Source: Actinomycetota bacterium (GTDB taxonomy: Bacteria > Actinomycetota > CADDZG01 > JAHWKV01 > JAOPZY01). From it: a stretch of DNA of 64,000 nucleotides. Both the position numbers and the translations under genes were made by a program. The number at the start of each line of letters is the position of its first letter. Position 1 is the first letter of the stretch. Location of the stretch: assembly GCA_035765775.1 (NCBI GenBank), contig DASTWV010000062.1:6887-70886 (forward strand), given 5' to 3'. Below, one piece after another: positions 3,277 to 28,938 of the stretch. The notes beneath the pieces were generated by a model. It ran no database searches, was not told the DNA's origin, and saw only the letters and a list, made by a program, of their open reading frames with translations.

Positions 3277-4043
3277 TCAGCAAGAAGACGCCAGAACAGC
3301 TTGAGAAGATGCTCTACGCCGGCCAGGCGCTGGCGGAGGTCATCGCTGAACTGGCGAAGGTGCTGGCCCCCGGCATCACGCTGCTCGAAGTGGACGCCCT
3401 GGCCGAGCGCCTCATCCGTGACCGGGGGGCGGTCCCCTCGTTCCTCGGCTACCGGGGCTTCCCGGGGAGTATCTGCGCCTCACCCAACAGCGTCATCGTC
3501 CACGGTATCCCGGACGGGACCGTGCTGCGGGATGGCGACCTGCTGTCGGTGGACGGCGGCCTCATTTTGGACGGCTGGCACGCCGACAGCGCCTACACCT
3601 ACCCCATCGGGACGGTGTCGGCCAAGGCCAAGCGGTTGCTGGACACCACCCAGGCGTCCCTGGAGGCCGGCATCGCCCAGTGCCGGCCCGGGAACCGGCT
3701 GACCGACATCTCCCACGCCGTCCAGCGAGTGGTTGAGAAGGCCGGTTTCAGCGTGGTGAAGGAGTTCGTCGGTCACGGGATCGGCCGTGACCTGCACGAA
3801 GACCCCCAGATCCCGAACTTCGGCCCGCCCGGCCGGGGGCCGCTGATCGAGCCCGGCATGGTGTTCGCCATCGAGCCGATGGTCAACGTGGGCGGCTGGC
3901 GTACCCGCACCCTGGACGACGGGTGGACCGTGGTGACCGCCGATGGCAGCCTGTCGGCGCACTTCGAGCACACGGTGGCCGTCACCCCGGCCGGGCCGCT
4001 GGTGCTCACCCGGCTGCCGGCATCCTCCTCGGTGAGCCGCTAG
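3273..4043 (+). CDS. map: type I methionine aminopeptidase
   Basis: An in-frame GTG at 3273 overlaps the adk stop (GTGA). The translation VISKKTPEQLEKM...SPNSVIVHGIP...DGWHADSAYT...FVGHGIGRDLHE...FAIEPM...HFEHTV carries MetAP metal-ligand motifs. The track ORF start at 2991 lies inside adk. Confidence 0.93.
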   Translation: MISKKTPEQLEKMLYAGQALAEVIAELAKVLAPGITLLEVDALAERLIRDRGAVPSFLGYRGFPGSICASPNSVIVHGIPDGTVLRDGDLLSVDGGLILDGWHADSAYTYPIGTVSAKAKRLLDTTQASLEAGIAQCRPGNRLTDISHAVQRVVEKAGFSVVKEFVGHGIGRDLHEDPQIPNFGPPGRGPLIEPGMVFAIEPMVNVGGWRTRTLDDGWTVVTADGSLSAHFEHTVAVTPAGPLVLTRLPASSSVSR

Positions 4044-4310
4044 CCGCGGCGGGCATGCCAGATATCAATAGATGTTCGCAAACATGACGCCCGTGGGGCG
4101 AGCCGCTTAAGTCGACCGGCTCCGGCGGGCGCCCGGTTCACCACGGCCGAATCGAAGGGCTTTCTCCCGCGCTTGTGGAGCGGCCGCGGCGTCGCGGGCC
4201 TGTCTGCGGGCGCACGGTGGGGCGAACAGGAAATTCGACCTCGCGAAGAGGTAAGCTTCGTGCCCCTGTAATTACGGCCGCAGCACGAGCTTCCCCGAGC
4301 TTCCCCACGT

Positions 4311-5840
4311 GTGATGGACCAAGTCGACGACGTTGACCCGCTGGAGCTGGTCTTCCCTGAGGATCTCGGGGTAGCCGATGCGGTCTCGGGGGCGGCGGCC
4401 CTCGGTGTTAATTCAGCTGTGGCCCGCGAGCCATCCATCCGCCTCGCTCCGGCCATCTTTCCGGTCGATCCACTGTGCGGGCCGGTGTTCCGGGACTTCG
4501 AGCAGGCCGGCGTGCGGTGGTGCCTGCTGGGTCTGCCCGAGGGATCCCGGGACCCCCGGGGTCTGCGGGAGGAAGTGGTGACCGCCCTCGTGGACCCGCC
4601 GGCGCTCGGCAGCGCCAAGCGGATCCTGCGGGCGAACGGCTTCGCCGCCGTGCCGATCTGGGACCAGCCCCGGGAGGGCGCCCAGCGCGCCCCCCAGGGC
4701 GAGGGCACCCACCGCTTCGTGGGCTACAACCCCAAGAGCGACTGCTGGGTCACGCTGCTCCTCGTCACCCGCCTGGCCTACGGCCCGTTCGCCACCCTGG
4801 AGACCGGCGCCGAGCGGGGCTGCCTGGAGCGGCGGCGCTGGGAGGGCGGCGTCTTCCTCCTCAACCAGGACGATGCCTTCTGGACGCTGCTGGTCGGCAT
4901 GCTGCTGGACCACCCACCCGGTGTGCCCCTACCCGCCTCCCCGGACCCGCTGGCCTTCAGCCGGCTTGAGCGCCTCGTGGTGGAGGCCCGCACCGACAGC
5001 CCCATCGCCCGCCTCATCGGCGGCTTCCTCCCGGCGGGCTGGGAGCCCCAGCACCTGGTGGACTGCGTGTGGGAGGGCGAGTGGGACGTCCTGGCCCGCC
5101 TCGCACCCACGGTCGAGTCGGAGTGGCTCGCCTCCCGCACCTGGGCCGCCCGCCGGCGTGGCGCAGGGGCACGCTTCGCCTCCCGGGTGGGGGCACGGCG
5201 GCTGCTGGGGGGGTTGCTGAGCGGCTCCCGGGGCCTGTCCGTGGCACTCCTGGCGCCCGACCCCGCCTTGAAAGGGGTCCTCGCCAGCGAACTCGGGGAG
5301 ACCTTCTACCTGCCGGTGAGCTACATCCGCATGGGCGCGGCTCCCCGCCGGCCAGGGCGGAGCCGGCGCCTCACCCGGGCGGGATTCCTGCGCACCCTGA
5401 CCACCTTCTGGCGTCGCTGGGCGTCAGGCTCGCTCCGGCGGGCCAAGGGGCGCCTGGTCCTGTTCGACCGCTACACCTATGACGCCCGCATCCCGCCCCT
5501 CACCCCGGTGCGGGGTCTGGGCCGGCTCCAGCGCATCGTGCTTGGGCGGGCCTGCCCGGCCCCCGACCTCGCGGTCATCCTGGACGCCCCGGCGGCCCTG
5601 CGGCCCCGGCGCACCCGGGGACCGGGCGGCGTGGAGGTGCCCTTTGCGGTGCGCCGGCGGCAATACCTTGACCTCGCCCTGCGGCTCCCGGACGCCCTGT
5701 GCGTGGAGGCCCGCTCGGGCGAGGACCGCCTGCGCCGGGAGGTCACCGCCCAGGTTTGGCGGGCCTACGCCGCCCTGCCGGCGCCGGTGTGGCTGCGCTG
5801 CGCCCGGCGCCTCCGGCGGCCGTGGAGGTCGGGCCGCTAG
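4311..5840 (+). CDS. degenerate paralogue of the downstream nucleotidyltransferase/P-loop-kinase fusion protein (predicted pseudoenzyme)
   Basis: The 509-aa product is collinear with the 6186-7514 product (AGVRWCLLG, DDAFWTLLVGMLLD, GRLVLFDRYTYDA, VWRAYAA). The NTase motif position reads EEVVTALVD and the Walker A position reads LLAPDPALKGV. A 10-bp tandem duplication gagcttcccc x2 (4287-4306) abuts the GTG/ATG start and no clear RBS is visible. Confidence 0.6.
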   Translation: MMDQVDDVDPLELVFPEDLGVADAVSGAAALGVNSAVAREPSIRLAPAIFPVDPLCGPVFRDFEQAGVRWCLLGLPEGSRDPRGLREEVVTALVDPPALGSAKRILRANGFAAVPIWDQPREGAQRAPQGEGTHRFVGYNPKSDCWVTLLLVTRLAYGPFATLETGAERGCLERRRWEGGVFLLNQDDAFWTLLVGMLLDHPPGVPLPASPDPLAFSRLERLVVEARTDSPIARLIGGFLPAGWEPQHLVDCVWEGEWDVLARLAPTVESEWLASRTWAARRRGAGARFASRVGARRLLGGLLSGSRGLSVALLAPDPALKGVLASELGETFYLPVSYIRMGAAPRRPGRSRRLTRAGFLRTLTTFWRRWASGSLRRAKGRLVLFDRYTYDARIPPLTPVRGLGRLQRIVLGRACPAPDLAVILDAPAALRPRRTRGPGGVEVPFAVRRRQYLDLALRLPDALCVEARSGEDRLRREVTAQVWRAYAALPAPVWLRCARRLRRPWRSGR

Positions 5841-5895
5841 CTCGCCGCCCTTCCGCCCGCCCGGCCCCGGTCCCGCTCCGAGTCCGCTGAGGTCG

Positions 5896-5930
5896 GGGAC
5901 ATTCGTCCCGGGCAGTGGGACAAATGTCCC
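5896..5930. promoter_or_regulatory. two adjacent GGGAC-N4-GTCCC palindromes (candidate operator pair)
   Basis: The sequence is GGGACattcGTCCC (5896-5909), a 7-nt spacer, then GGGACaaatGTCCC (5917-5930). It lies in the 345-bp intergenic region between the two paralogue genes. Confidence 0.35.
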
Positions 5931-6099
5931 TCGAAATGATGTTGACGGCGGCGCCCTTCGCAGCCCTGCTGCCCAAAACCCCGCAACCGGTCGCCCCTGC
6001 GGCTTGACTATCTATAGAAGCATCATTCCCGGTCGCCACGGACGGGTTCATCCCCTTCGAGGGAAACTCGACCGACCCCAGCTCGCCCGGCCCGGGCCC

Positions 6100-6162
6100 G
6101 GGTCCGGCCCGCAGGGCACTGGGTCCGGCCCGCAGGGCGCTGGTTCCGGCCCGCAGGGCGCA
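6100..6162. repeat. 3 x 21-bp tandem direct repeat
   Basis: The copies are gggtccggcccgcagggcact, gggtccggcccgcagggcgct and ggttccggcccgcagggcgca. The array ends 24 nt before the ATG at 6186. Confidence 0.8.
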
Positions 6163-6185
6163 ATGCCGATAACAATGGAATCCCT

Positions 6186-7514
6186 ATGAGCGCGCCCGCA
6201 CCCATCCACCCGCTCCTACGTGCCGCCTTCGGCGCTCTCGACGAGGCCGGGGTGCGCTGGGCCCTCCTCCGGGGTGAGGCCCGCCTCGCCGATCCCTCCG
6301 GCGATGTGGATCTGCTTGTGGCGCCCGAGGATCTCGACCGCATGCAGTCGGCTCTCGCCCCGCTGGCCATCGTCCCCGTGGAGCGCTGGGGGGGCTCCCA
6401 TCGGCTCTTCTTCGGCTACGACCCGGGGACGGACCGCTGGATCGAGCTCGACGCCGAGCCGGACCTCGACTACGGTCCCCAGGCCAGCTTCCTGGTCAAC
6501 TGGCTGCTCCCCGCCCTGCGGACCCACGCCGGCCCGGGGTGCCTCGCTCGGCGCCGGCAGGTGGGCGGGGTCTGGGTGCTGGACCCCGACGACGCCTTCT
6601 GGACGCTCCTCCTGCACTGCATCGTGGACAAGCGGGCCGTGGCCGAACGCCACCGGGGACGCCTGATGGAGCTGGCCGCCGAGGCCACGCCGGGCGGCCA
6701 GATCGGGCGCCGGGTCGGTCTGGCGTGCCCACCCGGCTGGGATGCCGCCCGGGTTATCGGGGCGGCCAGGAACGGGGAGTGGGACGCCCTGGTGGCCCTC
6801 GGGGCCGAGATCCCCCGCCGGGCCGCCGCCCGGCATCCGGTCGCCAGCCGGGCGACGGGCTTCGCCCAGGGGGTCGGCCGCCTGGGGGCCACCGCCGCCC
6901 GCATGCGGCGTGGCCGGGGCTTCAGCGTGGCGCTGCTGGGGCCGGACGGGTCGGGGAAGTCGACGCTGTCGAGCGGCTTGGTCGAGCACCTCGGGGTGCC
7001 TGCCCGGCTGGTGTACATGGGGCTGTGGCAGGGCGAGGAGGGCCAAGAACGGTCGATCGCACAGGCCGGCCTCGCCACCGCCAAGCGCCCGCTCAAAGTC
7101 TGGCGCCGCTACCTGGAGAGCCGCTACCACCGGGCCCGGGGGCGCATCGTGATCTTCGACCGGCACGTGTACGACGCCCTGCTCCCGCCCGAGCCCCCCC
7201 TGGTGGCGGCCAAGCGGGTCTTCTTCGGGTTCCTCGCCCACTCCGCCCCCGGGCCGCAGCTGACCCTGGTGCTCGACGTGCCCTCCGAGGTGGCGGCGCG
7301 CCGGCGCCCGGACGAGGATCCCGGCCGGCTCGGGCGCCTCCGGGACCAGTACCTGGCCCTGGCCGGGCGCCTGCCGCACGCCGAGGTGGTGCCCGCCGAG
7401 GGGACCCCGGACGAGGTGCGCATCGAGGCGACCAACCGGATCTGGCGGGCCTATGCCCGGCGCCGCTCCGGTCGCCCGCTCCGGGGCGCCGACGATGGCC
7501 AAGCCGAAGGCTAG
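6186..7514 (+). CDS. Pol-beta-type nucleotidyltransferase domain fused to a thymidylate-kinase-like P-loop kinase domain
   Basis: The N-terminal half has AGVRWALLRGEARLADPSGDVDLLVAPEDL, a minimal-NTase G-x-D-x-D-type signature. The C-terminal half has the Walker A LLGPDGSGKSTLSSGL and IVIFDRHVYDAL. Confidence 0.7.
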   Translation: MSAPAPIHPLLRAAFGALDEAGVRWALLRGEARLADPSGDVDLLVAPEDLDRMQSALAPLAIVPVERWGGSHRLFFGYDPGTDRWIELDAEPDLDYGPQASFLVNWLLPALRTHAGPGCLARRRQVGGVWVLDPDDAFWTLLLHCIVDKRAVAERHRGRLMELAAEATPGGQIGRRVGLACPPGWDAARVIGAARNGEWDALVALGAEIPRRAAARHPVASRATGFAQGVGRLGATAARMRRGRGFSVALLGPDGSGKSTLSSGLVEHLGVPARLVYMGLWQGEEGQERSIAQAGLATAKRPLKVWRRYLESRYHRARGRIVIFDRHVYDALLPPEPPLVAAKRVFFGFLAHSAPGPQLTLVLDVPSEVAARRRPDEDPGRLGRLRDQYLALAGRLPHAEVVPAEGTPDEVRIEATNRIWRAYARRRSGRPLRGADDGQAEG

Positions 7515-8544
7515 CGTCCCCCTGTCGCGGGGATTCGGGCTCGTCCAGGGCCGCGTGCGCCGGGCCCGGGTGGGGCGGGAAGCCCTGGCATCGGCCCCGG
7601 CGCTCGTCCCGGCCATCCTGACCGAGGTCGCCCGCCAGAGCGGCCTGCCCGCCGAGGGCTGGGTGGTGCTGCGCTCGGCCCTCTCCGGTACCCAGGTGGT
7701 GGTCATGATGGTCGGCCCCCAGGGCGGCGCCCCCGTCGCCGTGCTGAAGGTGCCCGCCACGGCCGATGGCCTCGCCAGCCAAGCCCGGGAGGGGACGGTC
7801 CTGGAGGCACTCGCCGGCCTGCCCGGCCCCTTCCGGATCCCCCGCCGCCTGGCCCAAGGCACGGTCGGCGGGCGCGGCTTTGTGGCCGAGGAGGCCATCC
7901 CCGGGGTGCCCGGCGATGCACTTATGACCGGTGCCGGCGCCAACCAGGCCCTCGCCGGTTCGGCGGCTGCGGTCATCACGGACTGGCACCGGGCGACCGG
8001 TGAGCCGGTGGTTGTCGGCGCCGACCTGCTCGGCCGCTGGGTGGACGAACGGGTCGCGGCGCTGTCCCCGGCGGTGCGCCAGCCGGCGCTCCTGGAGCGC
8101 CTGGGCACGCTGCTCCGGGGAGCCTGGGAGGGCCGCGAGGCGGTGGTCTCCTGGGTGCACGGCGACTTCTGGCCCGCCAACGTGCTCTTCGAACCGGTCA
8201 CCCTGGCGGTGACCGGCATCATCGACTGGGAGTGGGCAGCGCCGCAGGAGCTGCCCGCCCAGGACCTGTGCTACCTGCTGATCCAGGCCCGGATGCGGGC
8301 GACCGGCCGTGAGTTCGGCCCGGTGGTGGCCGCCCTTCTGGAGGGGGCCGCCTGGACCGCACCGGAGACCGCCGTCCTGGAGGCCGGTGGCGTCATCGCC
8401 CCGGGCGAGGCAGGCCCGGGCCGGGATGTCCTGCTGCTGGTGTGGTTGCGCCACGTGGCCTACAACCTGCTGCAGCACCCGGGCGACGCCCGCAACTGGG
8501 TCTGGACCGGGCGCAACCTGGAACCGGTGCTGCGCCGGGTCTGA
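7495..8544 (+). CDS. aminoglycoside/choline-kinase-fold phosphotransferase (APH family)
   Basis: It has VAVLKVP (lysine strand), the catalytic loop WVHGDFWPANVLF and the metal-binding IIDWEWA. The ATG at 7495 overlaps the previous gene by 20 nt, and an alternative start lies at 7453. Confidence 0.7.
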   Translation: MAKPKASVPLSRGFGLVQGRVRRARVGREALASAPALVPAILTEVARQSGLPAEGWVVLRSALSGTQVVVMMVGPQGGAPVAVLKVPATADGLASQAREGTVLEALAGLPGPFRIPRRLAQGTVGGRGFVAEEAIPGVPGDALMTGAGANQALAGSAAAVITDWHRATGEPVVVGADLLGRWVDERVAALSPAVRQPALLERLGTLLRGAWEGREAVVSWVHGDFWPANVLFEPVTLAVTGIIDWEWAAPQELPAQDLCYLLIQARMRATGREFGPVVAALLEGAAWTAPETAVLEAGGVIAPGEAGPGRDVLLLVWLRHVAYNLLQHPGDARNWVWTGRNLEPVLRRV

Positions 8545-8561
8545 CGCGTGCCCCCGGGCGC

Positions 8562-10511
8562 CTACGAGGTGGCCGGGTTCGGCGCCGCCGGCTGGGGCTT
8601 CGCCGCCCTCCCGGTGTTGGGCGACGACGACGGCGGGATCAGCTGCAGGACCATCGAGTCGGCGTTGTGGGTCAACTCGGTGGCCACGCCGCTGTTCACC
8701 ATGGTCTGGCCCAGCTGGTAGGACCAGTTGCTGGGCAGCGAGTCCAGGGCCTCCCCGGCCGCCTCCTGGCCCCGGGTGATGATCACGTACACCGGTACCC
8801 GGCCGAGGCCGTGGTCGGCGGCCACGTCCTCGACGCCCTTGACGCTGGGCGGGTCCACCGTGTTCTGGACCGACTCGTAGTCGTACAGGTTCACCTTCTC
8901 GTACCGCCAGGGGATCTGCGGGAACAGCGAGATGAGCGTGGAGTGTTCGGGGGCCACCTTGTAGAGGTACTGCACGCTGGCGAGGTCGGCGCTCGAGACC
9001 CGGTCGAACCGCTCGTTGCCGTAGCGGGCCACCAGCCACGCGGGGGCGAATGCGGTGGCCACCACGCAGAAGAGGATCGCCGGGCCGATGACCTTGTTCG
9101 GGTCGGAGGACGGCATGAACGCCATCGCCGCCATGATGCACACGAAGGGGAGGGCGAACAGGTAGGCCCGGAGCAGGGCCTCGCCGCCGTAGCTCTGCAC
9201 CACCAGCAGCGGGAAGGGGGCCGCCCCCAGCAGGACCATGCTCCAGTCGCCGTAGCCCAGCCGCCGGCGGCGGATGGCCCCGACGGCCGCGAGGAGGGCG
9301 ATGGCGCCCGCCAGGGCGATGCGGATGTCCAGCACCTCCAGGCGGCCGGCGCTCCCCTGGATCCGGCCGGTGAGGCTGGTGTTCACGTTGGCCCCCAGCT
9401 GGCCGACGCCACCGAAGATGTAGCTCAGGTGCCCGGACCAGAACGGCACTGCTCCCAGGCTGATCCAGGCGACCGTGATGGCGCCGAAGAGCACCGGGAA
9501 CCCCCGCAGGTTGGTGCGCCCGAAGATCGCCAGGGCGATGAGGCCGCCGATCAGCAGGAAGGGGGTCAGCTGGTGGCTGACCGCCATGGCGGTGAAGATC
9601 ACCATGACGGCGGCGATGAGGACGCCGCGCTGGGCAGGCGTGGACCGCACCGTGATCCGCTCCTCGCCCCGCCCCCCGACCACCCGCATGGCCCGGCCCA
9701 GGGCGCGCTGGAGCCGGGTCCCCCGGCCGGGGTCGGGCATCGCCGGGCGGAACCACCGCAGTGCCACGGCGACGATCACCAGGAAGAAGAAGAAGCTGAG
9801 CGCCTGGGGCGAGAAGTAGTCCTGCCCCACCCAGCTGGCCAGGTAGAACAGGGCGAGGCTCATCCACCAGATCCGCTCGTTGCGGGTGATCGCCCGGCAG
9901 ATGGCGTACAGCGGCGCCAGGTACATCAGGTTGAACACCAGGGGAGCCCAGCGCAGGAAGGCCTGCGGTGAGCTGAGCCCGGCGGCTTTCGACAGGAATG
10001 CCGCCAGAGCGAAGAACCCCGGCCAGCTGAACCGGGCGTCCAGGGTGGGCAGCGTGTGGCCGGTGGTGGCGATCTGCTGGGCAAACCCGGCGTGCAGCCA
10101 GGCGGTGGCGAACGAGGCGTGGGGCTCGACCAGCGGCCCGAGACCGTCGAGGAGCAGCACCAAACCGAAGATCTGGAAGGCCAGCAGCGGGCGGCGGAGC
10201 GGGCGCTGCACCAGCGCGAAGCCGAAGCTCAGCATCACCAGGCCGATGGCGACGAAGTAGGTGGGGCCGGCCACGGTGATCAGGCCGAGGTCGCCCAGCT
10301 TGGAGGAGTCCACCCGCAGCAGGGCCAGTGTGGCCATGATCAGTGCGGCGACGGTCATGAGCGCCATCTGGCCGGTGCTCAGCCCGACCCGGCGGGGCGG
10401 GAGCACCTCTAGGGGCTCGTCCTCCAGGACCACGCCTGCCCCGCGGCCGTTGTAGCCCCCGCCGGGCTGCGGTGGGGCGCCGGCCAGGCGCTGGCGCTCG
10501 CCGGTGGCCAT
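8562..10511 (-). CDS. large polytopic membrane protein with C-terminal extracytoplasmic domain (GT-C-like or polymerase-like candidate)
   Basis: 649 aa with many hydrophobic helices in the first ~470 aa, followed by a soluble ~170-aa C-terminal domain. It is the last gene of the GT2-Wzx-X minus-strand unit, 16 nt after the flippase stop. The fold assignment is inference only. Confidence 0.55.
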   Translation of the reverse strand: MATGERQRLAGAPPQPGGGYNGRGAGVVLEDEPLEVLPPRRVGLSTGQMALMTVAALIMATLALLRVDSSKLGDLGLITVAGPTYFVAIGLVMLSFGFALVQRPLRRPLLAFQIFGLVLLLDGLGPLVEPHASFATAWLHAGFAQQIATTGHTLPTLDARFSWPGFFALAAFLSKAAGLSSPQAFLRWAPLVFNLMYLAPLYAICRAITRNERIWWMSLALFYLASWVGQDYFSPQALSFFFFLVIVAVALRWFRPAMPDPGRGTRLQRALGRAMRVVGGRGEERITVRSTPAQRGVLIAAVMVIFTAMAVSHQLTPFLLIGGLIALAIFGRTNLRGFPVLFGAITVAWISLGAVPFWSGHLSYIFGGVGQLGANVNTSLTGRIQGSAGRLEVLDIRIALAGAIALLAAVGAIRRRRLGYGDWSMVLLGAAPFPLLVVQSYGGEALLRAYLFALPFVCIMAAMAFMPSSDPNKVIGPAILFCVVATAFAPAWLVARYGNERFDRVSSADLASVQYLYKVAPEHSTLISLFPQIPWRYEKVNLYDYESVQNTVDPPSVKGVEDVAADHGLGRVPVYVIITRGQEAAGEALDSLPSNWSYQLGQTMVNSGVATELTHNADSMVLQLIPPSSSPNTGRAAKPQPAAPNPATS

Positions 10512-10527
10512 CAGGCCCTCGCCCCGG

Positions 10528-11892
10528 TCATGGCGCGTGCACCCCGGCGGGCGCCGGGGCGGGGTGGGCCAGCATGCGCAGGATCGAGGGGAGGACGGCG
10601 GCGGCCACCACGATCTGGCTGGCGAGGTACGCCACCCCCACGCCGCTCAGGCCCAGGTGGCCCATGAGGATCCAGGAGAAGCCGGTGATCGAGACGAAGA
10701 GCGCCCCCTGGGCCAGGGCGATCCGGCTCACCTTGCGCTCCACCCGCGACAGGGCGATGTACAGCGAGGTCACCGCCTTGAACAGCACCGCCACCGCCAG
10801 CAGCCGCAGCAGGGTGGAGGCGTGGACGGCGTAGGGGCGGGTGTACACCGACAGGATCAGCGGGGCGAAGCCCACCAGGATCACCTCGGCCGGAACGATG
10901 ATGGCCAGGATGCGGCGGACGACCACGGCCGCCTGCTGGCGCAGCGACGCCCGGTCGATGGCCCCCTCCACCATGAGCGCCACCCCCAGGTTCACGGTCA
11001 CCAGGTCCAGGGCGTAGATGATCACGTACACCACGCCGAAGTAGCCGGCGTTGGCGGCGTTGAGCCGGACCGTGATCAGCAGCGGCAGGATGGTCCCCAT
11101 CGCCATGAAGAAGACGGTGCCCAGGTAGTCCCCGCCCATGAACCGGGCCATGGTGGCGAAGGTGACCGGGGCGGTGTGCGCGCTGGCCGAGACCCGCTCC
11201 CGGGCCACGTGACGGGGGAGCAGGTGCCCGAAGATCAACAGGTTGACGGGCACCAGGGCGATGGCTGCCGGGACGATCCATGAGAAGAAGATCCCATAGT
11301 GGCGCAGAACGTGGGCGATGGCCACGAGCATGACGATCTTGCCGATCCCGTACAGGCCGTTCTCGACCGGGATCCACACCGCCTGCCGGATGCCGGTCAG
11401 CACCGCGTCCTGCAGGGCGAACACGCACCACACCGTGACCGACGCACCGAAGAGGAGCCCGAGGCCCCACCCCCGCCCCACCACCGCCGGGAGCCCGAGG
11501 CTCGGGATGTGGAGGCCGATCAGGTAGAGGAGGCTGACCAGCGCGCCCGCCCCCCCGGCGAATCCGTACGAGATGACCGCCAGCCGGCGGGAACCGGTGC
11601 CGGCGTGCGGGATGAAGCGGGTGAGGGCCGCCTGGAAGGTGAGCTGCCCGCCGACCCCGGCCAGCAGCTGCATGAGGTTGATGGCGTCCACGCCCAGGCC
11701 CACGTTGGTCTTGCTGTAGAGGTGGGTGGCCAGGATCCAGTAGGCGAAGCCCAGCACGGACGTGAGACCCACGTTGACCACCAGGGCGTAGCCGTTGCGC
11801 AGCAGCGGGTCCCGCCAGTCGGCCAGCAGCCGGCGCACGGGGTGGCGGAGGAGGCTGACGGGAGGAGCCGGCGGGGCGGCGACTTCGGCCAT
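10528..11892 (-). CDS. MOP/Wzx-type polysaccharide flippase
   Basis: 454-aa protein with roughly 12-14 TM helices. The N-terminus LLRNGYALVVNVGLTSVLGFAYWIL...LTRFIP resembles polysaccharide biosynthesis (Wzx) proteins. It lies 6 nt downstream of a GT2 gene. Confidence 0.75.
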   Translation of the reverse strand: MAEVAAPPAPPVSLLRHPVRRLLADWRDPLLRNGYALVVNVGLTSVLGFAYWILATHLYSKTNVGLGVDAINLMQLLAGVGGQLTFQAALTRFIPHAGTGSRRLAVISYGFAGGAGALVSLLYLIGLHIPSLGLPAVVGRGWGLGLLFGASVTVWCVFALQDAVLTGIRQAVWIPVENGLYGIGKIVMLVAIAHVLRHYGIFFSWIVPAAIALVPVNLLIFGHLLPRHVARERVSASAHTAPVTFATMARFMGGDYLGTVFFMAMGTILPLLITVRLNAANAGYFGVVYVIIYALDLVTVNLGVALMVEGAIDRASLRQQAAVVVRRILAIIVPAEVILVGFAPLILSVYTRPYAVHASTLLRLLAVAVLFKAVTSLYIALSRVERKVSRIALAQGALFVSITGFSWILMGHLGLSGVGVAYLASQIVVAAAVLPSILRMLAHPAPAPAGVHAP

Positions 11893-11898
11893 GGCCGG

Positions 11899-13200
11899 CT
11901 AGCCCCGGCTCCGCTGGGTCCGGCGGGTGCGCACCCGGCTGCGCAGGTAGCACCACGGGCCGAGGAGCACACCCCCCATCTCGGTCAGGGTGAGCTGGCG
12001 GGGGAAGGTGGAGGTCTTCTTGTCGTTCTTGGCCGACCCCGGGTTGAGGAAGTACAGCGCCCCCCGGGGGATCCGGCGCAGCATGTCGAGGCGGTGCCCC
12101 GAGGTGGCCATCGTCTTGGTGAGCACGGAGGCCAGCCCGATGCCGTAGCCGCGGACCGTGCGGCGCAGGTCGTCGTACTCCCGCCGATGGCGGTGGCGGA
12201 CCAGCGAGCGGGGCTCGTAGACCAGCCGGTGCCCGGCCAGCACGATGCGCAGGAAGGCGTCGAGGTCCTCGCCGCCCTTCGCCGGCGTGGCCGGGCCGAG
12301 CGACGTGTCGAACCCCCCCAGCGCACGCAGGATGGCGGGGTCGAAGGCGGCGCTGGCCCCGGAGCCGAAGCGCCCCACCGAGTACGGGTAGAGCGGGTCG
12401 TCGGGCGCGTACTCACCCAGGTCGAACACCTGCTGCTCATACCCCTTGTCGAACCCGCCGAACTCTTCGATCCAGATCTGGGCGGGCGTCTCCAGCTCGG
12501 CGGGCAGGATCATGCCGGTGACGCACGCCACCCCCGGGGCGGCCTGGAAGCCCAGTACCAGGCTGCGCAGCCACAGGCGGTCCACCACCACATCGTCGTC
12601 CAGGAAGGCCACCACGCCACCGGTGGCCTCGCGCAGGCCGCGGTTGCGCCCAGCGGACGCTCCCGGCGTGGTCTCGACCACGTAGGCCACCCGCGGGTCG
12701 TTCCCGAAGCGCTCGGCGATGGCGTCCCGGGTGGCCGAGGAGCTGGGGGCATTGTCCACCACGATCACCTCGAGGGACGGATAGTCGGCCGCCAGGACCG
12801 AGGCGACGCACTCGCAGACCGGGCCGGGGCGCTCATGGGTGGAGATGACCACCGAGGCAAAGGGGAACTCGGCATCGGGGTGGCGCTGGCAGGGGGGCCG
12901 GGTGCCGCCCGCCGTCCCCGTCACCAGTCCGCGGGTGCCGAGTGACTCCACCGGGTCCAGCCCGTCGTGGGCCAGGTGCCCCAGGAGGGGGCCGCGCAGC
13001 TCGGCCCATGCTGCCTCCGCCAGGGCGGCGGGCGGGACCGGGCCTTGGGCGAGATCGATCTCCAGCGTGCCCAGGGGCACGCCGTGCAGCCGGACGAGGA
13101 CCAGGGCGGAGCGGGCGGCGGTGTCACCGGGCGCGCCCGGGTCCAGCGTGGGGAGGGGCTCGGACAGCTCGACGTCGAGCACCCGGGCAGGGGCCTGCAT
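11899..13200 (-). CDS. family 2 glycosyltransferase
   Basis: It has FASVVISTHERP...LEVIVVDNAPSS...GASAGRNRGL...VAFLDDDVVVD (GT-A fold, DxD). The start was chosen at the ATG at 13200 (MQAPARV, GGAAG upstream). The track start at 13305 adds 35 low-GC3 codons and is less likely. Confidence 0.8.
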   Translation of the reverse strand: MQAPARVLDVELSEPLPTLDPGAPGDTAARSALVLVRLHGVPLGTLEIDLAQGPVPPAALAEAAWAELRGPLLGHLAHDGLDPVESLGTRGLVTGTAGGTRPPCQRHPDAEFPFASVVISTHERPGPVCECVASVLAADYPSLEVIVVDNAPSSSATRDAIAERFGNDPRVAYVVETTPGASAGRNRGLREATGGVVAFLDDDVVVDRLWLRSLVLGFQAAPGVACVTGMILPAELETPAQIWIEEFGGFDKGYEQQVFDLGEYAPDDPLYPYSVGRFGSGASAAFDPAILRALGGFDTSLGPATPAKGGEDLDAFLRIVLAGHRLVYEPRSLVRHRHRREYDDLRRTVRGYGIGLASVLTKTMATSGHRLDMLRRIPRGALYFLNPGSAKNDKKTSTFPRQLTLTEMGGVLLGPWCYLRSRVRTRRTQRSRG

Positions 13201-13477
13201 GGACTTCCAACCGGCCTTTCTGGCGAATCGGACAGTGAGGGCGCGATCGACCGCAGCTCCTCCGGCACATTGATTACACCTCGCCAAAGCGAGTGTGTCA
13301 ACCACGGAGTAGACGGCTCTTCGTATAATTGCGATGCACCCTAATTCTTTCCGAGTGGCTATAAAGTTTCGATCCCGGGTTGCCGAAGAAAGGAGTTGGA
13401 ATTAACGGGCAGCGTGCATGCCGGGGGGCAGAGCGGCCCGGGATCGCTACCGTGCCGGACACCCACATGGAGGACGA

Positions 13478-14416
13478 GTGAGTACCGACGCGCTGAGCTT
13501 CTCGGTGGTGGTGTGCGCCTACACCGAGAAACGCTGGGACGAGATCGTGGCGGCCGTGGCGTCGCTCCGGGACCAGACCCACCCCCCCGCCGAAATCGTC
13601 CTGGTGGTTGATCACAACCCCGACCTCTTTGCGCGCGCCCGCGCCGAGCTTGCCGGTGTGATCTGCGTCGAGAACGAGGGCAAGCAAGGCCTCTCCGACG
13701 CGCGCAACGCCGGCCTCCATGCCGCCCACGCCGACATCGTGGCCTTCCTGGACGACGACGCCGTCGCCGAGCCGGGCTGGCTGGCGCTGCTGGCGGAGGG
13801 CTATGCCGATCCCGCCGTCCTGGGCGTCGGCGGCTTCGCCCAGCCCGCCTGGCTGGCCGGGCGCCCGGCGTGGTTCCCCAAGGAGTTCGACTGGGTGGTG
13901 GGCTGCACCTACCTCGGGATGCCCACCACCGCCGCCGCGGTGCGCAACATGGTGGGCTGCAACATGTCGTTCCGCCGGGAGGTGTTCGACGGCCTGGGCG
14001 GGTTCAACGCCGCCATCGGCCGCCTCGGGACCCGACCGGTGGGCTGTGAGGAAACCGAGCTGTGCATCCGCCTCAGCCAGCACAATCCGGGGGCGGTGAT
14101 CCTCTTCGACCCCCGGGCCGTGGTGCACCACAACGTCCCCGCCGGCCGGGGGACCTGGAAGTACTTCCGGGCCCGCTGCTACGCCGAGGGGCTGTCCAAG
14201 GCGGCGGTGGCCGACCTGGTGGGGGCGGACCAGGGCCTCAGCGCCGAGCGGCGCTACAGCACCGTGACCCTTCCCAAAGGGGTGCTGGCCGGTCTGGCGG
14301 CGGGAATCCGGGGCGATCGCTACGGATTTGCCCGGGCGGGCGCTATCGTTGCCGGGGTGAGCATCGCAACCCTCGGCTACGGTCTCGGCCGCCTGGCACC
14401 GAAGAGGTTCCTGTGA
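13478..14416 (+). CDS. family 2 glycosyltransferase
   Basis: It has FSVVVCAYTEKRW...EIVLVVDHNPDL...GLSDARNAGL...VAFLDDDAVAE. The GTG at 13478 is preceded by GGAGGA, and an alternative ATG lies at 13418. It is divergent from the GT2 at 11899-13200. Confidence 0.8.
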   Translation: MSTDALSFSVVVCAYTEKRWDEIVAAVASLRDQTHPPAEIVLVVDHNPDLFARARAELAGVICVENEGKQGLSDARNAGLHAAHADIVAFLDDDAVAEPGWLALLAEGYADPAVLGVGGFAQPAWLAGRPAWFPKEFDWVVGCTYLGMPTTAAAVRNMVGCNMSFRREVFDGLGGFNAAIGRLGTRPVGCEETELCIRLSQHNPGAVILFDPRAVVHHNVPAGRGTWKYFRARCYAEGLSKAAVADLVGADQGLSAERRYSTVTLPKGVLAGLAAGIRGDRYGFARAGAIVAGVSIATLGYGLGRLAPKRFL

Positions 14417-15294
14417 GGCGGCCCGCCCTCGATGCTACGCAGGGCGACACAGCCGGCAACGGAGCCGCCAACGGGCTCCTGCCGGGGACGGCCGTCCCCA
14501 TCCTCCTGTACCACGGTGTCGGCTCCGATGCGTCCAGCGAGCTCCGCCGCTTCACGGTGTCACCGGCGGCCTTCGACCAGCAGATGACGATGCTCGCCGA
14601 GCAGGGCTACACCACCCTGACGGTCTCGGAGTTCCTGCCCGCCCTGCACGGCAACCCCGCCGGACTTCCGGCCCGGCCCGCGCTGATCACCTTCGACGAC
14701 GGGTTCGCCAACACCCTCACCGAGGCGCTCCCCATCCTGGAGCGCCACGGGTTCGCCTCGACGCTGTACGCCACCACCGGCTTCATGGGCGACGGTGGGA
14801 AGGGGGGCAGGCGGGGGGTCAACCGGTCGGGCGACGCCATGCTCTCCTGGGATGAGCTGCGCGAGCTGGCCGAACGGGGCATGGAGATCGGGGCCCACAC
14901 CCACAGCCACCCGATGCTGGACACCCTGCCGGCCGAGGCCGCCCGGGCGGAGATCACCGGGTCCAAGGACCTGATCGAACAGGCCCTCCAGGCCCCGGTG
15001 CGCAGCTTCGCCTACCCGCACGGGTACTCGAGTGCGGCGGTGCGCCGCATGGTGGCCACCGCTGGCTACACCTCGGCGTGCGCCGTGAAGAACGCCCTCA
15101 GCCACCCGGCCGACGACCGGTTCGCCATCGCCCGGCTGACCATCGAGGCAGGCCACAGCCTGGAGAACGTGGACGCCATGATCAGCGGCCGGACCACCCG
15201 GCTGGCGCCCTCCCGGGAGCACCTGCAGACCACCGGCTGGCGCTGGGCACGGCGGGGCATGGCCCTCTACCGGCGGGCCCGGGAACGACCGTGA
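14413..15294 (+). CDS. polysaccharide deacetylase (NodB/CE4 family)
   Basis: The GTG at 14413 overlaps the upstream stop (GTGA). It has ILLYHGV...ALITFDDGFANT...FASTLY...EIGAHTHSHPML...FAYPHGY. Confidence 0.8.
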   Translation: MRRPALDATQGDTAGNGAANGLLPGTAVPILLYHGVGSDASSELRRFTVSPAAFDQQMTMLAEQGYTTLTVSEFLPALHGNPAGLPARPALITFDDGFANTLTEALPILERHGFASTLYATTGFMGDGGKGGRRGVNRSGDAMLSWDELRELAERGMEIGAHTHSHPMLDTLPAEAARAEITGSKDLIEQALQAPVRSFAYPHGYSSAAVRRMVATAGYTSACAVKNALSHPADDRFAIARLTIEAGHSLENVDAMISGRTTRLAPSREHLQTTGWRWARRGMALYRRARERP

Positions 15295-15707
15295 GCACCT
15301 CCCACCGGGCCGCGGCGGGCCTCGGGCCGCTGGGCGGCTACTGGCGGCCGGCCACCGTCGCCATCCTCGTCGCCGGTGCCTTTGCCTTCCACGGGGCGGT
15401 CACGGGCAGCAGCCTGGGCGCCATCCGCGGGACCTTCACGCTGCTGCTCATGGGCTTCGGCCCCGGGTTGGCCATCATGGGGGTGCTGCGGGTGGACGAC
15501 ATGGTCCTGGAGCTGAGCCTGGCGCTGGCGCTCAGCCTCGCCATCGACACCTTGCTGGCCATGGGCATGATCCTGCTGCACCACTGGTCGCCCACCAACG
15601 GCCTGTTCCTGGTGATGGCGGTCAGCGCACTCGGGTGCCTCGTGCAGGCCAGCCAGGTGCGCCGCCTGAAGGCCAGGCCCCGCTACCAGACCGGGGAGCA
15701 GGCGTGA
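15291..15707 (+). CDS. small integral membrane protein (about 4 TM)
   Basis: The GTG at 15291 overlaps the deacetylase stop (GTGA). The 138-aa product is hydrophobic, and no family was recognised. Confidence 0.5.
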   Translation: MSTSHRAAAGLGPLGGYWRPATVAILVAGAFAFHGAVTGSSLGAIRGTFTLLLMGFGPGLAIMGVLRVDDMVLELSLALALSLAIDTLLAMGMILLHHWSPTNGLFLVMAVSALGCLVQASQVRRLKARPRYQTGEQA

Positions 15708-15949
15708 GCTCGGCCCTCACCAAGACCACGCTCACCTTCCTGGGCAGCCACAGCTTTGTCCGGGCCTCGGGGTGGGTGGCCGTCGTCGTGCTCACGCTGC
15801 TCATCATCCTGCTGGTGGAGAAGGAGGCCGTCCGGGCGGTCGTGCGCTCCGGCCCGCCCTCCGCCCGGCGGATCTTCGATGTCGCCGCCCTGCCGCTGCT
15901 CCTCACGCTGGCGATCGTGGTCATCCAGCGGTTCCGGGTGATCGGGTGA
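15704..15949 (+). CDS. small membrane protein (2 TM)
   Basis: The GTG at 15704 overlaps the upstream stop (GTGA). The product is 81 aa: VSSALTKTTLTFLGS...WVAVVVLTLLIILLVEKE...AALPLLLTLAIVVIQRF. Confidence 0.4.
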   Translation: MSSALTKTTLTFLGSHSFVRASGWVAVVVLTLLIILLVEKEAVRAVVRSGPPSARRIFDVAALPLLLTLAIVVIQRFRVIG

Positions 15950-15956
15950 CCGGAAC

Positions 15957-16805
15957 GTGAGCACCGACCTGCTCTCCCCGGAGGGCGACCTGGATCCTGC
16001 CGAGCCGCGCCCCCGGCGCCGCGGGTCCCACGCCATCGAGTTGGGCTACGCCGTCGCCATCATCCTGGCCGAGCTGGTCGGCCTGCGGGACCCGCTGCTC
16101 AGCGGCGTCTGCCAGGGCGTCCTGCTGGTCGTGCTGATCAATCACTACGCCATGTCGGAGCGGGACGAGCGCCAGCCGCTGCTGCTGGCCATGGCGGTGG
16201 TGTGCCTGTACCGCGTCCTGGCCCTCACCCCCCTGTCCGGCGGCCACCTGGCCAACCGCCTGGCGGTCATCGGCGTCCCGGCTCTCCTGGCCGCTGTCCT
16301 GGCGATGCGCCTGCTGGGCTATCCCGGCATCGGGGGGCCGCTGCCCGACAAGCCCTCCTCGGGTGCCGTCCAGCTGGTGATCGGCCTGCTGGGGGTCCCG
16401 CTCTCCTATGCCGCCTACAAGCTCCTGAAGCCCACCACGGTGGTGACCTTCTCGGGCAACGGCCATACGACACTCTCCAATGTCATCACCGCCGTGACCG
16501 CGCTGGTGGTGTTCTCGGGCCTCACCGAGGAGCTCCTGTTCCGCGGCCTGCTCCACAGCGCGGCGAGGGCCACCTTCGGGCCGCTGGGCCTGTACGTGAG
16601 CTCGCTCCTCTTCGCCGCCGCCTACATCGGCACCCGCTCGGCCGCCTTCGTGCTGTTCGCCCTCGCCGTGGGGGCATTCTTCGGGTGGTGCGCCGAGCGC
16701 AGCGACTCCATCATCGGCGTGGTGCTGGCGCACGCGGTGATCAGCGTGGGGGCCTTCGTGGTGTGGCCGTCCCTGGCCAGCTCCATGGCCTCGCTGCACC
16801 TGTAG
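15957..16805 (+). CDS. CPBP (CAAX) family intramembrane glutamic endopeptidase
   Basis: Polytopic protein with the signature LTEELLFRGLL, followed by FAAAY and a C-terminal VVLAHAVISVG histidine motif. Confidence 0.75.
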   Translation: MSTDLLSPEGDLDPAEPRPRRRGSHAIELGYAVAIILAELVGLRDPLLSGVCQGVLLVVLINHYAMSERDERQPLLLAMAVVCLYRVLALTPLSGGHLANRLAVIGVPALLAAVLAMRLLGYPGIGGPLPDKPSSGAVQLVIGLLGVPLSYAAYKLLKPTTVVTFSGNGHTTLSNVITAVTALVVFSGLTEELLFRGLLHSAARATFGPLGLYVSSLLFAAAYIGTRSAAFVLFALAVGAFFGWCAERSDSIIGVVLAHAVISVGAFVVWPSLASSMASLHL

Positions 16806-16893
16806 AACATAGCGGGCGTGCCAGAGGCCGCGTTCATCCGGCTGAGCCCCTGAGCCCGGGCGGCACGGCCCACGGGAGTAGGCTCCCGCCCAT

Positions 16894-18507: not shown

Positions 18508-18537
18508 CAAAACGACCGGGCCCTGGAGGCCCGGTCG
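18508..18537 (-). terminator. rho-independent terminator between convergent genes
   Basis: A perfect 10-bp stem cgaccgggcc/ggcccggtcg (18513-18522 and 18528-18537) with a 5-nt loop. On the minus strand it is followed by UUUUG, 29 nt after the GT2 stop. Confidence 0.55.
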
Positions 18538-18565
18538 CAGTGTTGCCTGGGTTGGTTCTTACCGC

Positions 18566-19567
18566 TCAGGCGCCCGTCTCGGCGGACGCCAGGCGGGTGA
18601 AGCGGGAGTGCAAGATGGTGTTGAGGACCCGCAGGCCGTCCCGCACCGGGTGCAGGTGCGAGGTGCCGTTCAGCCGCTCGGCCTCCTTGGAGGGGATCTC
18701 GGCGATCCGCAGGCCCCGGCGCAGCGAGTTGACCACGATCTGGGTCTCGATCTCGAAGCCGTCGGCGTCGAGGCGCATCGCCGGGATCGACGAGCGCCGC
18801 AGGGCCATGAAGCCGTAGCACAGCTCGGTGAAGTCGGCGGCGAAGAGCAGGTTCACCATGCCCCGGAGGCAGTAGTTGCCCAGCTGCCGGGTGGGGGTCA
18901 GGTCCGTGGAGCCGCCGCCCGGGCAGGCCCGGGAGCCCTTGACCAGGTCGTAGCCGGCGTCCACTGCCCGCACGTAGCTCTCGATCTCCTGGGGGTCCAT
19001 GCTGCCGTCGGCGTCGATCATCACCACGACATCCTTGGTGGCGGCGGCGAACCCGGTGCGCAGCGCCACACCCTTGCCCTTGCGGAGGTCGGTGACGATG
19101 CGTACGTCGGGGCGGACAGCCTGCGCCACCTCGACGGTGCGGTCCCGGGAGCCCCCGTCAATGATGAGGATCTCGTCCACCCAGGTGGGCATGCGCTGCA
19201 GCACCCAGCCGATGTTGGCCTCCTCGTTCAGCGTGGGGATGATCACGCTGACCGTCGGCAGGCTGACCAGCCGGGGGTAACCGTCGAGGTCGCTCCACTC
19301 GGTGTCGAGCGAGTCCACCTGGGGGCCCGGCACCAGGGTGCCGGCGGCCTGCCGCCCACTGGCCTCGGGGCCAGCGTCGAGGGCGATGACCTTGTCGATG
19401 TCCTCCAGGAGCTCCCGCTCCGCCATCAGTTCGGCCATGAGCGTGTGGGCCGAAGTGGTGGTGGTCTCCAGTGCGTGGTCGAGGGCCGCGGTGTCGAAGG
19501 CCTCGGCCTGGACACGGGACCTGCGCTTCGGTGCCAAGAACAGCAGACGATTCGAAATCATAGCCAC
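18566..19567 (-). CDS. family 2 glycosyltransferase (Dpm1/GtrB-like polyprenyl-phosphate glycosyltransferase type)
   Basis: It has VSVIIPTLNEEANI...ILIIDGGSRDRT...KGKGVALRTGF...VVMIDADGSMDP. It also has a ~110-aa N-terminal extension. Confidence 0.8.
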   Translation of the reverse strand: MAMISNRLLFLAPKRRSRVQAEAFDTAALDHALETTTTSAHTLMAELMAERELLEDIDKVIALDAGPEASGRQAAGTLVPGPQVDSLDTEWSDLDGYPRLVSLPTVSVIIPTLNEEANIGWVLQRMPTWVDEILIIDGGSRDRTVEVAQAVRPDVRIVTDLRKGKGVALRTGFAAATKDVVVMIDADGSMDPQEIESYVRAVDAGYDLVKGSRACPGGGSTDLTPTRQLGNYCLRGMVNLLFAADFTELCYGFMALRRSSIPAMRLDADGFEIETQIVVNSLRRGLRIAEIPSKEAERLNGTSHLHPVRDGLRVLNTILHSRFTRLASAETGA

Positions 19568-20083: not shown

Positions 20084-20181
20084 GGCCGTTCGCCCTGCTT
20101 CCGGGATGGTTGTCGCGCGTGGTACCGGGAACACGGCTGGCGCGCGCATGGGGGGTGGGCCTAGAGGAGCACGGGGAGCGT

Positions 20182-26765: not shown

Positions 26766-26877
26766 GCTCAAGTTTCAGCCCTCGTATCCGATACTTAGCA
26801 GGTAGCAAGGAAGGGGGGATGCGACTGGGGGACTCTGACCCGGAACCAGCGGCGAGCGTTGCTGGAGCAACACAACC

Positions 26878-27030: not shown

Positions 27031-27096
27031 TAGCGCAACTTCGCCGCGCGGACCCACGTGTGCTCTCTTGCGTAGGTAAAGGAGTGTGTCTCCGCT

Positions 27097-28938
<1,842 letters not shown>

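Follow-up and report, generated by a model that had tools for sequence, protein, structure and literature searches.

The window analysed here, a 64,000-nucleotide stretch of contig DASTWV010000062.1 from an Actinomycetota bacterium (assembly GCA_035765775.1), opens with the gene order rpsE-rplO-secY-adk-map, and the next two genes, both on the forward strand, encode related proteins of a type that joins a nucleotidyltransferase (NTase) domain to a P-loop kinase domain. We refer to the two products as ORF1 and ORF2 (open reading frames 1 and 2; coordinates in Table 1) and to the NTase-kinase fusion family as NK. ORF2 carries the catalytic motifs of both domains, whereas ORF1 has lost catalytic residues in both and is nevertheless held under purifying selection. 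The GC content of the window is ~70-75%, and both genes show coding-type composition, with third-position GC (GC3) of 0.91 in ORF1 and 0.93 in ORF2 and second-position GC (GC2) of 0.55-0.56 in both. Composition-adjusted BLASTP aligned the two proteins with 34% identity over 451 columns (E 1e-59), and the alignment was collinear from residue 51 of ORF1 and residue 6 of ORF2 until near both C-termini. The initial annotation had described collinear paralogues of these positions and lengths and had quoted a series of matching blocks and substitutions. The ORFs were present as described, and every block and substitution was recovered in pairwise and multiple alignments, including PSGDVDLLVAPEDL (vs REEVVTALVDPPAL), LLGPDGSGKSTL (vs LLAPDPALKGVL) and, from ORF2 to ORF1, the changes of the NTase strand from GDVDLLV to EEVVTALV and of Walker A from GPDGSGKST to APDPALKGV. 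No third copy of either gene was detected in the window by tblastn. A 509-aa ORF at 30543-32072, considered as a second copy of the cassette, was rejected; it encodes an unrelated YjeF_N/Carb_kinase NAD(P)HX repair enzyme and is followed by an alanine racemase gene.

In ORF2, G30 precedes the two aspartates of the DxD motif (D40 and D42), and a third carboxylate, D89 (nt 6450-6452), lies on the strand formed by residues 84-91. ORF2 thus shows the Pol-beta signature hG[GS]-x9-13-DxD with a third carboxylate on a later strand, and according to the alignment and an AlphaFold model these residues sit on the strands expected of a Pol-beta NTase core. The second half of the protein contains a Walker A motif of the thymidylate kinase (TMK) type, [AG]xxxxGK[ST], together with the DR(Y/H/F) pattern. 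When the N-terminal 235 residues of 40 family members were scanned one by one, PF14907 (NTP_transf_5) was matched in 27 of them (best E 1.7e-9) and no other family was found among the 40; precomputed PF14907 matches were also available for many ORF2 homologues. Further matches of ORF2 below threshold were to Pfam AAA_18/28 and to NCBIfam nucleoside/nucleotide-kinase and dTMP-kinase models, and the weak sequence match in the PDB was to Aquifex TMK (E 0.0095). The AlphaFold model of ORF2, based on a 102-sequence alignment, reached a pLDDT of 92.7 and a pTM of 0.90, and its best 50 Foldseek matches in the PDB were all thymidylate kinases aligned with the C-terminal half (probability 1.0, TM 0.67-0.69 on the target, E down to 7.8e-7). 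The matches listed from the viral library BFVD likewise fell on the kinase half, and a long helix (residues 291-317 of the model) stands in place of the nucleoside monophosphate (NMP)-binding segment of TMK. As modelled, the C-terminal half has a P-loop NMP-kinase/thymidylate-kinase fold, and its profile matches assign the N-terminal half to the PF14907 neighbourhood as a Pol-beta NTase-like domain. Both domain identities proposed initially are thus supported, the kinase half by Foldseek and the N-terminal half by the PF14907 matches in 27 of 40 members.

ORF1 shows the Pol-beta NTase signature at neither site, reading EEVVTALV at the DxD and VTLLLV at the strand of the third carboxylate, and it gave no match in Pfam or NCBIfam (PF14907, PF02223 and TIGR00041 included). 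Its close homologues number 28 (26 of full length, 49-88% identity), and in all 28 the DxD is lost and Walker A is degenerate ([AG]P[DE]xxxK[AGS]), one subclade keeping AxxxxGKA at the latter site. The initial description of both catalytic motifs as erased holds for the DxD and for the glycines and Ser/Thr of Walker A, but not for the Walker lysine (K321) or the DR motif (D386-R387), which remain in all ORF1-type sequences reaching those sites. K321, D386-R387, D391, R449 and R475, among others, are invariant in the alignment of live and dead clades, and the NTase-domain motifs CLxRR and DDAFW are common to live and dead proteins. Judged from the alignment, the six named kinase-half residues correspond to the phosphate-binding set of a TMK-like site. 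The invariance of these residues and of the shared NTase motifs suggests that ORF1 has kept the ability to bind a ligand. Across 27 ORF1-type sequences, 100 alignment columns were invariant. The AlphaFold model of ORF1 was weaker than that of ORF2 (pLDDT 69.4), but the secondary-structure elements of both follow each other in the same order, and the best 50 Foldseek matches of ORF1 in the PDB comprised 49 thymidylate kinases and one deoxyadenosine kinase (E down to 3.1e-5).

The N-terminal extension of ~45 aa that had been noted in ORF1 proved to be real and conserved among its orthologues. An acidic motif, MEPLDELDPLAxVFPEDD, is conserved in the ORF1 clade, and the extension is missing from all intact family members. 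Since the orthologues begin at MDQ/MEP, ORF1 probably begins with the ATG at 4314, which follows the GTG by one codon.

We then surveyed motif states across 334 family members, 315 of which could be scored. Both motifs were intact in 275 and both were lost in 28, all of the latter (28/28) belonging to the ORF1 clade, while a dead NTase with a live kinase was found in 11 proteins and the reverse combination in one. The members outside the ORF1 clade that lack the DxD and have a canonical Walker A are P0048, P0058, P0074, P0208, P0225, P0228, P0235, P0240, P0284, P0288 and P0314, and their sequences suggest repeated independent inactivation of the NTase half alone.

Selection was estimated by the Nei-Gojobori method against orthologues 85-88% identical to ORF1 (contigs L086 and L088), with ORF2, adk and map taken from the same contigs. 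The ratio of nonsynonymous to synonymous substitution rates (dN/dS) was 0.12-0.16 for ORF1 (0.107 in the NTase-like part, 0.156 in the kinase-like part and 0.25 in the N-terminal extension), compared with 0.215 for ORF2, 0.16 for adk and 0.10 for map; YN00 gave still lower ratios, with a sign of dS saturation. ORF1 is thus under purifying selection on a par with its housekeeping neighbours, which excludes a decaying duplicate and, together with the same losses in the 28 homologues, supports the earlier proposal that the gene is retained. At longer range, in comparisons with one set of metagenome-assembled genomes (MAGs), ORF1 diverges faster, with 52-56% identity vs 65-69% for ORF2; the APH-family phosphotransferase encoded downstream of ORF2 (hereafter APH) shows 53-54% identity over that range, a rate similar to that of ORF1. 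Homology to an active family, loss of catalytic residues, purifying selection and intact orthologues elsewhere together mark ORF1 as a candidate pseudoenzyme.

The order map-ORF1-ORF2-APH-(membrane protein, flippase-like protein, GT2)-GT2-deacetylase-two small membrane proteins-CPBP recurs in contigs L001, L002/L003 and L008 of related MAGs and, in part, in L006, L007 and L088; in at least six other contigs an ORF1 orthologue stands just upstream of an ORF2 orthologue. The pair therefore occurs elsewhere in the same order and cluster, as an enzyme with a retained partner had been expected to. The upstream junction of the cluster, directly after map, is the same in L001, L002 and L086. Inserted genes were seen in two loci: in L006, a gene for a secreted 470-aa protein (5821-7233) lies between ORF1 and ORF2, and in L007, a TnpB/IS605-OrfB-like gene with a zinc-finger motif (8403-10145) lies between ORF2 and APH. 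In L009, the Walker A of the ORF1 orthologue reads APGITGKAA, and another contig of the same MAG (CTOTU39051), L041, carries a more divergent pair of NK and APH genes at 9983-12291 (48% and 40% identity).

In a library of 1.84 billion representative sequences, the ORF1 clade corresponded to a single 50%-identity cluster (758 bits, the next match scoring 352 bits). It is thus a narrow, lineage-specific invention, confined to one uncultured Actinomycetota lineage. In the neighbour-joining tree, the ORF1 clade was recovered in every one of 100 bootstraps, never (0/100) as the sister of the ORF2 clade, and it grouped weakly (54/100) with an intact actinobacterial subgroup, the tree being distance-based only and open to long-branch effects on the ORF1 stem. 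Because ORF1 was never the sister of ORF2, the two are adjacent paralogues rather than the outcome of a fresh tandem duplication. The label of tandem paralogues that they first received is accordingly right for adjacent homologues and wrong for a recent tandem duplicate, ORF1 falling outside the ORF2 clade in 100/100 replicates.

The spacer between the two genes, 345 nt in the window, far exceeds the 33-125 nt of L001, L002, L007, L008 and L088. Its 21-bp unit GGGTCCGGCCCGCAGGGCGCT is repeated three times with 95% matches at 6100-6161, directly 5' of the ORF2 start. This repeat and the AT-richer patch could be an operator or promoter region that gives ORF2-APH its own control; Rfam and promoter/terminator scans of 3900-8700 detected neither an RNA family nor a sigma-70-like site. 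At 7453-7514, the longest APH ORF shares 62 nt with the 3' end of ORF2. In the orthologues the overlap is 14 nt or the start lies 4 nt past the stop, so that APH in the window probably starts later than the longest ORF. ORF2 and APH are likely co-transcribed.

The two genes begin a ~15-kb cluster (4311-19567) that lies between map (end 4043) and infA (20110-20415), inside the ribosomal-protein/secY/adk/map...infA/rpsM array, and that otherwise consists largely of candidate polysaccharide genes (Table 1). The two small conserved proteins of the cluster were considered as modified peptide precursors, and this was rejected, both being hydrophobic membrane proteins. Between the CPBP gene and the third GT2 gene, a 537-aa protein (16894-18507, +) matches DMFA2_C (N,N-dimethylformamidase beta-subunit-like; E 2.9e-106). 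None of the related loci has a counterpart of this protein, which appears specific to this window. PADLOC reported no defence-system match for ORF1, ORF2 or APH. Outside the cluster, a full-length glmS ribozyme/riboswitch (RF00234; 85.3 bits, E 3.5e-18) was found at 26867-27037 (+), 5' of a 613-aa ORF at 27097-28938 that is presumably glmS.

Table 1. Features of the NK pair and of the surrounding cluster (positions in the window; GT, glycosyltransferase)
Feature	Position	Strand	Description
ORF1	4311..5840	+	509 aa; NTase-like/TMK-like fusion paralogue with degenerate catalytic motifs, candidate pseudoenzyme
ORF1 N-terminal extension	4311..4460	+	~aa 1-50; conserved acidic motif MxxxDDxDPLxxVFPED, then a variable linker, predicted disordered
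ORF1 NTase strand	4569..4592	+	aa 87-94, EEVVTALV; site of the NTase GDVDLLV strand, both Asp lost
ORF1 Walker A	5253..5279	+	aa 315-323, APDPALKGV; degenerate, glycines and Ser/Thr lost, Lys321 kept
ORF1 DR(Y) motif	5463..5483	+	aa 385-391, FDRYTYD; TMK-type, retained
ORF1-ORF2 spacer	5841..6185	.	345 nt; locally AT-richer patch and 21-bp x 3 tandem repeat
ORF2	6186..7514	+	442 aa; intact NTP_transf_5-like NTase domain (~aa 1-235) and thymidylate-kinase-like P-loop domain (~aa 240-430)
ORF2 NTase DxD	6300..6320	+	aa 39-45, GDVDLLV; predicted beta-strand 40-45
ORF2 Walker A	6939..6965	+	aa 252-260, GPDGSGKST
ORF2 DR(H) motif	7155..7175	+	aa 324-330, FDRHVYD
APH	7453..8544	+	APH-family phosphotransferase, protein-kinase-like fold; most constant neighbour of the fusion family
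Membrane protein	8562..10511	-	polytopic, 649 aa; no Pfam/NCBIfam family; conserved in the cluster; possibly a polymerase or GT-C-like enzyme
Flippase-like protein	10528..11892	-	Wzx/MOP-type, 454 aa; six orthologues match Polysacc_synt
GT2	11899..13305	-	GT2 glycosyltransferase, 468 aa
GT2	13418..14416	+	GT2 glycosyltransferase, 332 aa
Deacetylase	14413..15294	+	polysaccharide deacetylase (PF01522); start inferred from the 4-nt overlap in orthologous loci
Small membrane proteins	15300..15949	+	two conserved proteins, ~135 aa and ~82 aa in orthologous loci
CPBP	15957..16805	+	CPBP/Rce1-like intramembrane protease family protein
GT2	18566..19567	-	third GT2 glycosyltransferase; in loci of Micromonosporaceae and Chloroflexia, too, a few kb away from the fusion gene

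Intact NK proteins extend well beyond this lineage: an indexed search gave 425 matches, 391 representatives (50% identity) reached E<=1e-30, and a genome scan across 185,579 species genomes confirmed 203 matching stretches. They are found in Actinomycetota (including Micromonospora and Dactylosporangium), Chloroflexota, Gemmatimonadota, Myxococcota and other phyla. The window-type cluster, minus ORF1, is present in Micromonospora and Dactylosporangium (Micromonosporaceae) and in Chloroflexia; cultured carriers are Dactylosporangium salmoneum JCM 3272 and Micromonospora yasonensis DSM 45980. Otherwise NK is found chiefly in clusters of the Wzx/Wzy type, which hold a 564-aa APH and a Wzz-plus-P-loop protein besides GT4, GT2, Wzx and Wzy_C, and in 31 loci the Wzz-plus-P-loop (BY-kinase-like) gene lies immediately upstream of NK. 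After correction for shadow ORFs, which confound neighbour clustering in high-GC DNA, an APH-like gene was found within 8 kb of NK in 60/86 loci, and in 40/46 of those flanked on each side by 5 kb or more.

Domain fusions were found in the arrangements Wzx-NK, Wzx-GT9-NK, GT4-NK, GT9-NK, NK-APH, NK-GT4 and PF01522 deacetylase-NK, with APH joined to NK in P0114, P0229 and P0283 and GT9 in P0197 and P0206. Multidomain fusion proteins on record include P0195, P0197, P0205, P0206, P0229, P0283, P0290 and P0307. These cluster contexts and fusions locate NK on the cytoplasmic side of polysaccharide assembly, near glycosyltransferases and the flippase, and they argue against the name 'thymidylate kinase' that JGI gives to NK homologues, which are otherwise called 'hypothetical'. 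The suggestion of a glycan modification module was strengthened by the conserved synteny and the fusions, and the statement that no characterised member of the fusion architecture can be named was upheld, literature searches having found none; no curated Pfam or NCBIfam family covers the full NTase-kinase architecture. Two further kinds of P-loop protein were seen near NK genes. Stand-alone homologues of the kinase half, ~230 aa long with intact GPDGxGKTT P-loops, occur in the same polysaccharide clusters as full NK (L025 18752-19492, L032 1041-1688, L034 1422-2177, L049 1868-2554, L052, L063, L066, L076, L080 and L082), in L049 immediately downstream of NK. A ~390-aa neighbour with a GxxKGGKT P-loop, present in 13 NK loci (L062 13858-15033 and 12 others), has weak similarity to HprK-related kinase A/B and to the FomB phosphonate kinase (E ~7e-4, far under the cut-offs).

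With homology, motif states, the kinase-half fold, purifying selection, synteny and fusions established here, we propose, at a probability of about 55%, that ORF2 and APH constitute a phosphate-based module for the tailoring of lipid-linked glycans, with ORF1 as a selected, ligand-binding, non-catalytic partner. The NK family would act, together with an APH-type kinase, at the cytoplasmic side of envelope or exopolysaccharide assembly. The NK kinase domain, the APH or both would phosphorylate a sugar within the lipid-linked unit, the new phosphate would be esterified or capped by the NTase domain with a glycosyl or nucleotidyl group, and the Wzx-like flippase would then export the capped unit. 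ORF1 would serve as a scaffold or regulator of the ORF2/APH module, binding a ligand without catalysis, a role suggested by the loss of its catalytic motifs, by its retention of the fold together with the Walker lysine, DR motif and remaining phosphate-binding arginines, and by its gain of a conserved acidic N-terminal tail. The substrate, the chemistry and any physical interaction between ORF1 and ORF2 are what we infer in this scheme. More tentatively, NK could represent a new glycan-tailoring class that adds a phosphodiester- or pyrophosphate-linked substituent to lipid-linked repeat units, first by the kinase and then by NTase capping, before Wzx flipping; ORF1 would then be a substrate-presenting pseudoenzyme that binds this intermediate as well and, via its acidic tail, docks onto or gates the active enzyme. 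The novelty lies in the NTase-kinase combination in a glycan-assembly role and in a doubly inactivated paralogue under selection; both domain folds, and pseudoenzymes as such, are familiar.

The closest functional parallel is the pseudomycoidin cluster of Bacillus pseudomycoides, in which the kinase PsmK installs a phosphate on a lasso peptide and PsmN, described as an 'uncharacterized nucleotidyltransferase', adds one or two hexoses onto it; PsmN needs the PsmK phosphate, and its DxD (D134/D136) is essential, the DxD mutant being dead (PMC6993621). PsmK/PsmN and NK share the pairing of a P-loop kinase with a DxD nucleotidyltransferase; NK would have both activities in one polypeptide, whereas PsmN is a stand-alone protein. 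No lasso-peptide or other ribosomal-peptide modification (RiPP) genes (cyclase, B1/B2, precursor) were found in the window cluster or related loci, which contain glycosyltransferases, a flippase and a deacetylase instead. A further parallel is an unclassified phosphonate cluster in which Ppm (phosphoenolpyruvate mutase) is flanked by a PF14907 protein and a thymidylate kinase.

In the LicA/LicC/LicD system, a choline/APH-superfamily kinase and the NTase-fold LicD put a phosphodiester-linked substituent on a surface glycan. The likeness is an APH-type kinase beside an NTase-fold transferase, and the differences are the extra P-loop kinase domain of NK and the absence of a transporter; Pfam/NCBIfam scans gave no match to LicD, Choline_kinase or LicC-type models. 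WaaP and WaaY, lipopolysaccharide-core heptose kinases with a protein-kinase-like fold, phosphorylate sugars of lipid-linked glycans at the cytoplasmic face. They offer an analogy for the APH partner only, alongside the fusion of NK to GT9, the heptosyltransferase family, in P0197 and P0206, and have no sequence relation to NK. ORF2 resembles thymidylate kinases in fold, Walker A and DR(Y/H) motif and differs from them in its sub-threshold scores, its NTase fusion, the long helix in place of the NMP-binding segment and a glycan context rather than one of nucleotide metabolism. Like other enzyme/pseudoenzyme pairs, ORF1 combines lost catalytic residues with kept ligand-binding residues, purifying selection and an adjacent active paralogue; unlike them, it has two catalytic centres inactivated in one protein and is not the sister of its live neighbour.

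Several findings weigh against the proposed tailoring module. The N-domain of ORF2 matches PF14907 with 18.8 bits (E 0.0013), short of the gathering threshold of 31.2, and the whole protein scores 18.2 bits against Thymidylate_kin (PF02223; cut-off 27) and 17.5 against TIGR00041 (cut-off 83.25). The best 50 Foldseek matches of both ORF1 and ORF2 were all taken by the kinase half and none by the N-domain, and a PDB profile search with the N-domain alignment yielded only chance matches to designed helical (repeat) proteins. The 11 members without the NTase DxD and with a live kinase indicate that NTase chemistry may be dispensable in places, and ORF1-type proteins bearing AxxxxGKA may, to judge from that motif, still bind nucleotide. 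In L009, the ORF1 orthologue (18-1256) abuts the membrane-protein gene, with no ORF2 or APH between them, and the 345-nt spacer and the whole genes inserted within the module in L006 and L007 give no sign of translational coupling. The pseudomycoidin parallel is itself imperfect, as PsmK is HPrK-like and NK is TMK-like with an APH partner, the acceptor of PsmN is a ribosomal peptide, and the membership of PsmN in PF14907 is inferred from its description.

The main rival to glycan tailoring is donor activation, in which APH would be an anomeric sugar or small-alcohol kinase, the NTase would form a nucleoside diphosphate (NDP)-sugar, the TMK-like domain would recycle NMP/NDP, and ORF1 would again be non-catalytic. 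Sugar salvage pairs a kinase with a nucleotidyltransferase, as in AmgK/MurU and the bifunctional Fkp, so that the combination follows standard salvage logic. PAPS synthase (ATP sulfurylase plus APS kinase) and Fkp (fucokinase/GDP-fucose pyrophosphorylase), fusions of nucleotidyl transfer and kinase activity that make an activated donor, have the same architectural logic as NK; their folds and families are unrelated to it, and they serve as a model for this rival only. The linkage and occasional fusion of NK with APH, the suitability of a nucleotide substrate for a TMK-like fold, and the PF14907 protein and TMK beside Ppm, in a cluster where a donor must be activated, fit it as well. Known sugar-1-phosphate nucleotidylyltransferases, however, are built on another fold, the usual acceptor of a Pol-beta NTase is a hydroxyl group, and the Wzx and deacetylase fusions point to an assembled lipid-linked unit at the membrane. 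PsmN, moreover, works after phosphorylation of the acceptor (PMC6993621). We regard donor activation as rather unlikely, although it fares best among the alternatives.

That ORF1 is still an enzyme, with re-tooled sites (e.g. E87/E88, K321 and D386/R387) and a chemistry divergent from that of an equally active ORF2, appears improbable. In window ORF1, none of the three NTase carboxylates stands at its canonical position, and the P-loop has neither its glycines nor the Ser/Thr that binds Mg; these losses are fixed in 28/28 ORF1-type sequences, and the ORF1-clade alignment contains no compensating conserved acidic or glycine-rich motif. The idea gains from the strong purifying selection on both halves, from the invariance of K321, the DR motif and two arginines, from the AxxxxGKA subclade, and from the third NTase carboxylate (VILDIA) and acidic first position kept by about half of the clade.

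We give still less credence to a regulatory role, in which NK and APH would modify proteins of the assembly machinery, in the manner of BY-kinase control of Wzx/Wzy, with ORF1 as a decoy or adaptor. The Wzz-plus-P-loop gene directly 5' of NK in 31 loci and the protein-kinase-like fold of APH would suit such a role, as would the occurrence of protein AMPylators among Pol-beta NTases. Against it, the fusions to catalytic GT4, GT9 and deacetylase domains look more like assembly lines of biosynthesis than like signalling, no BY-kinase is present in the window cluster, and PsmN, by its description the sole studied 'uncharacterized nucleotidyltransferase' relative, is a tailoring enzyme. Decay of a young, still open pseudogene, or a similarity arising by compositional chance in a 73% GC region, was considered because long spurious ORFs are common at such GC and ORF1 has no Pfam or NCBIfam match; it is refuted by the composition-adjusted BLASTP result, the GC3 of 0.91 vs GC2 of 0.56, the 28 homologues (26 of full length) down to 49% identity, the dN/dS of 0.12-0.16, and the family's order of secondary-structure elements in the ORF1 model. 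Least credible of all is that ORF2 is the thymidylate kinase of the cell, as the JGI name, the fold and the weak sequence matches would have it, given scores far under the TMK cut-offs, a fused 235-aa NTase domain, a context that is always a polysaccharide cluster, and a distribution as patchy as the 203 stretches in the genome scan.

The reach of these findings is bounded in that the pseudoenzyme occurs in a narrow uncultured lineage only and that paired live and dead paralogues are familiar. Within that lineage, ORF1 and ORF2 amount to a natural experiment, in which two catalytic centres were inactivated in one protein and yet selection on it is as strong as on its housekeeping neighbours, and they are a useful case for how pseudoenzymes arise and act in biosynthetic assembly lines. 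For the family as a whole, working out the reaction of NK would correct a systematic mis-annotation as 'thymidylate kinase' and probably bring to light a new phosphate-linked modification of glycans in soil phyla that have been little studied.

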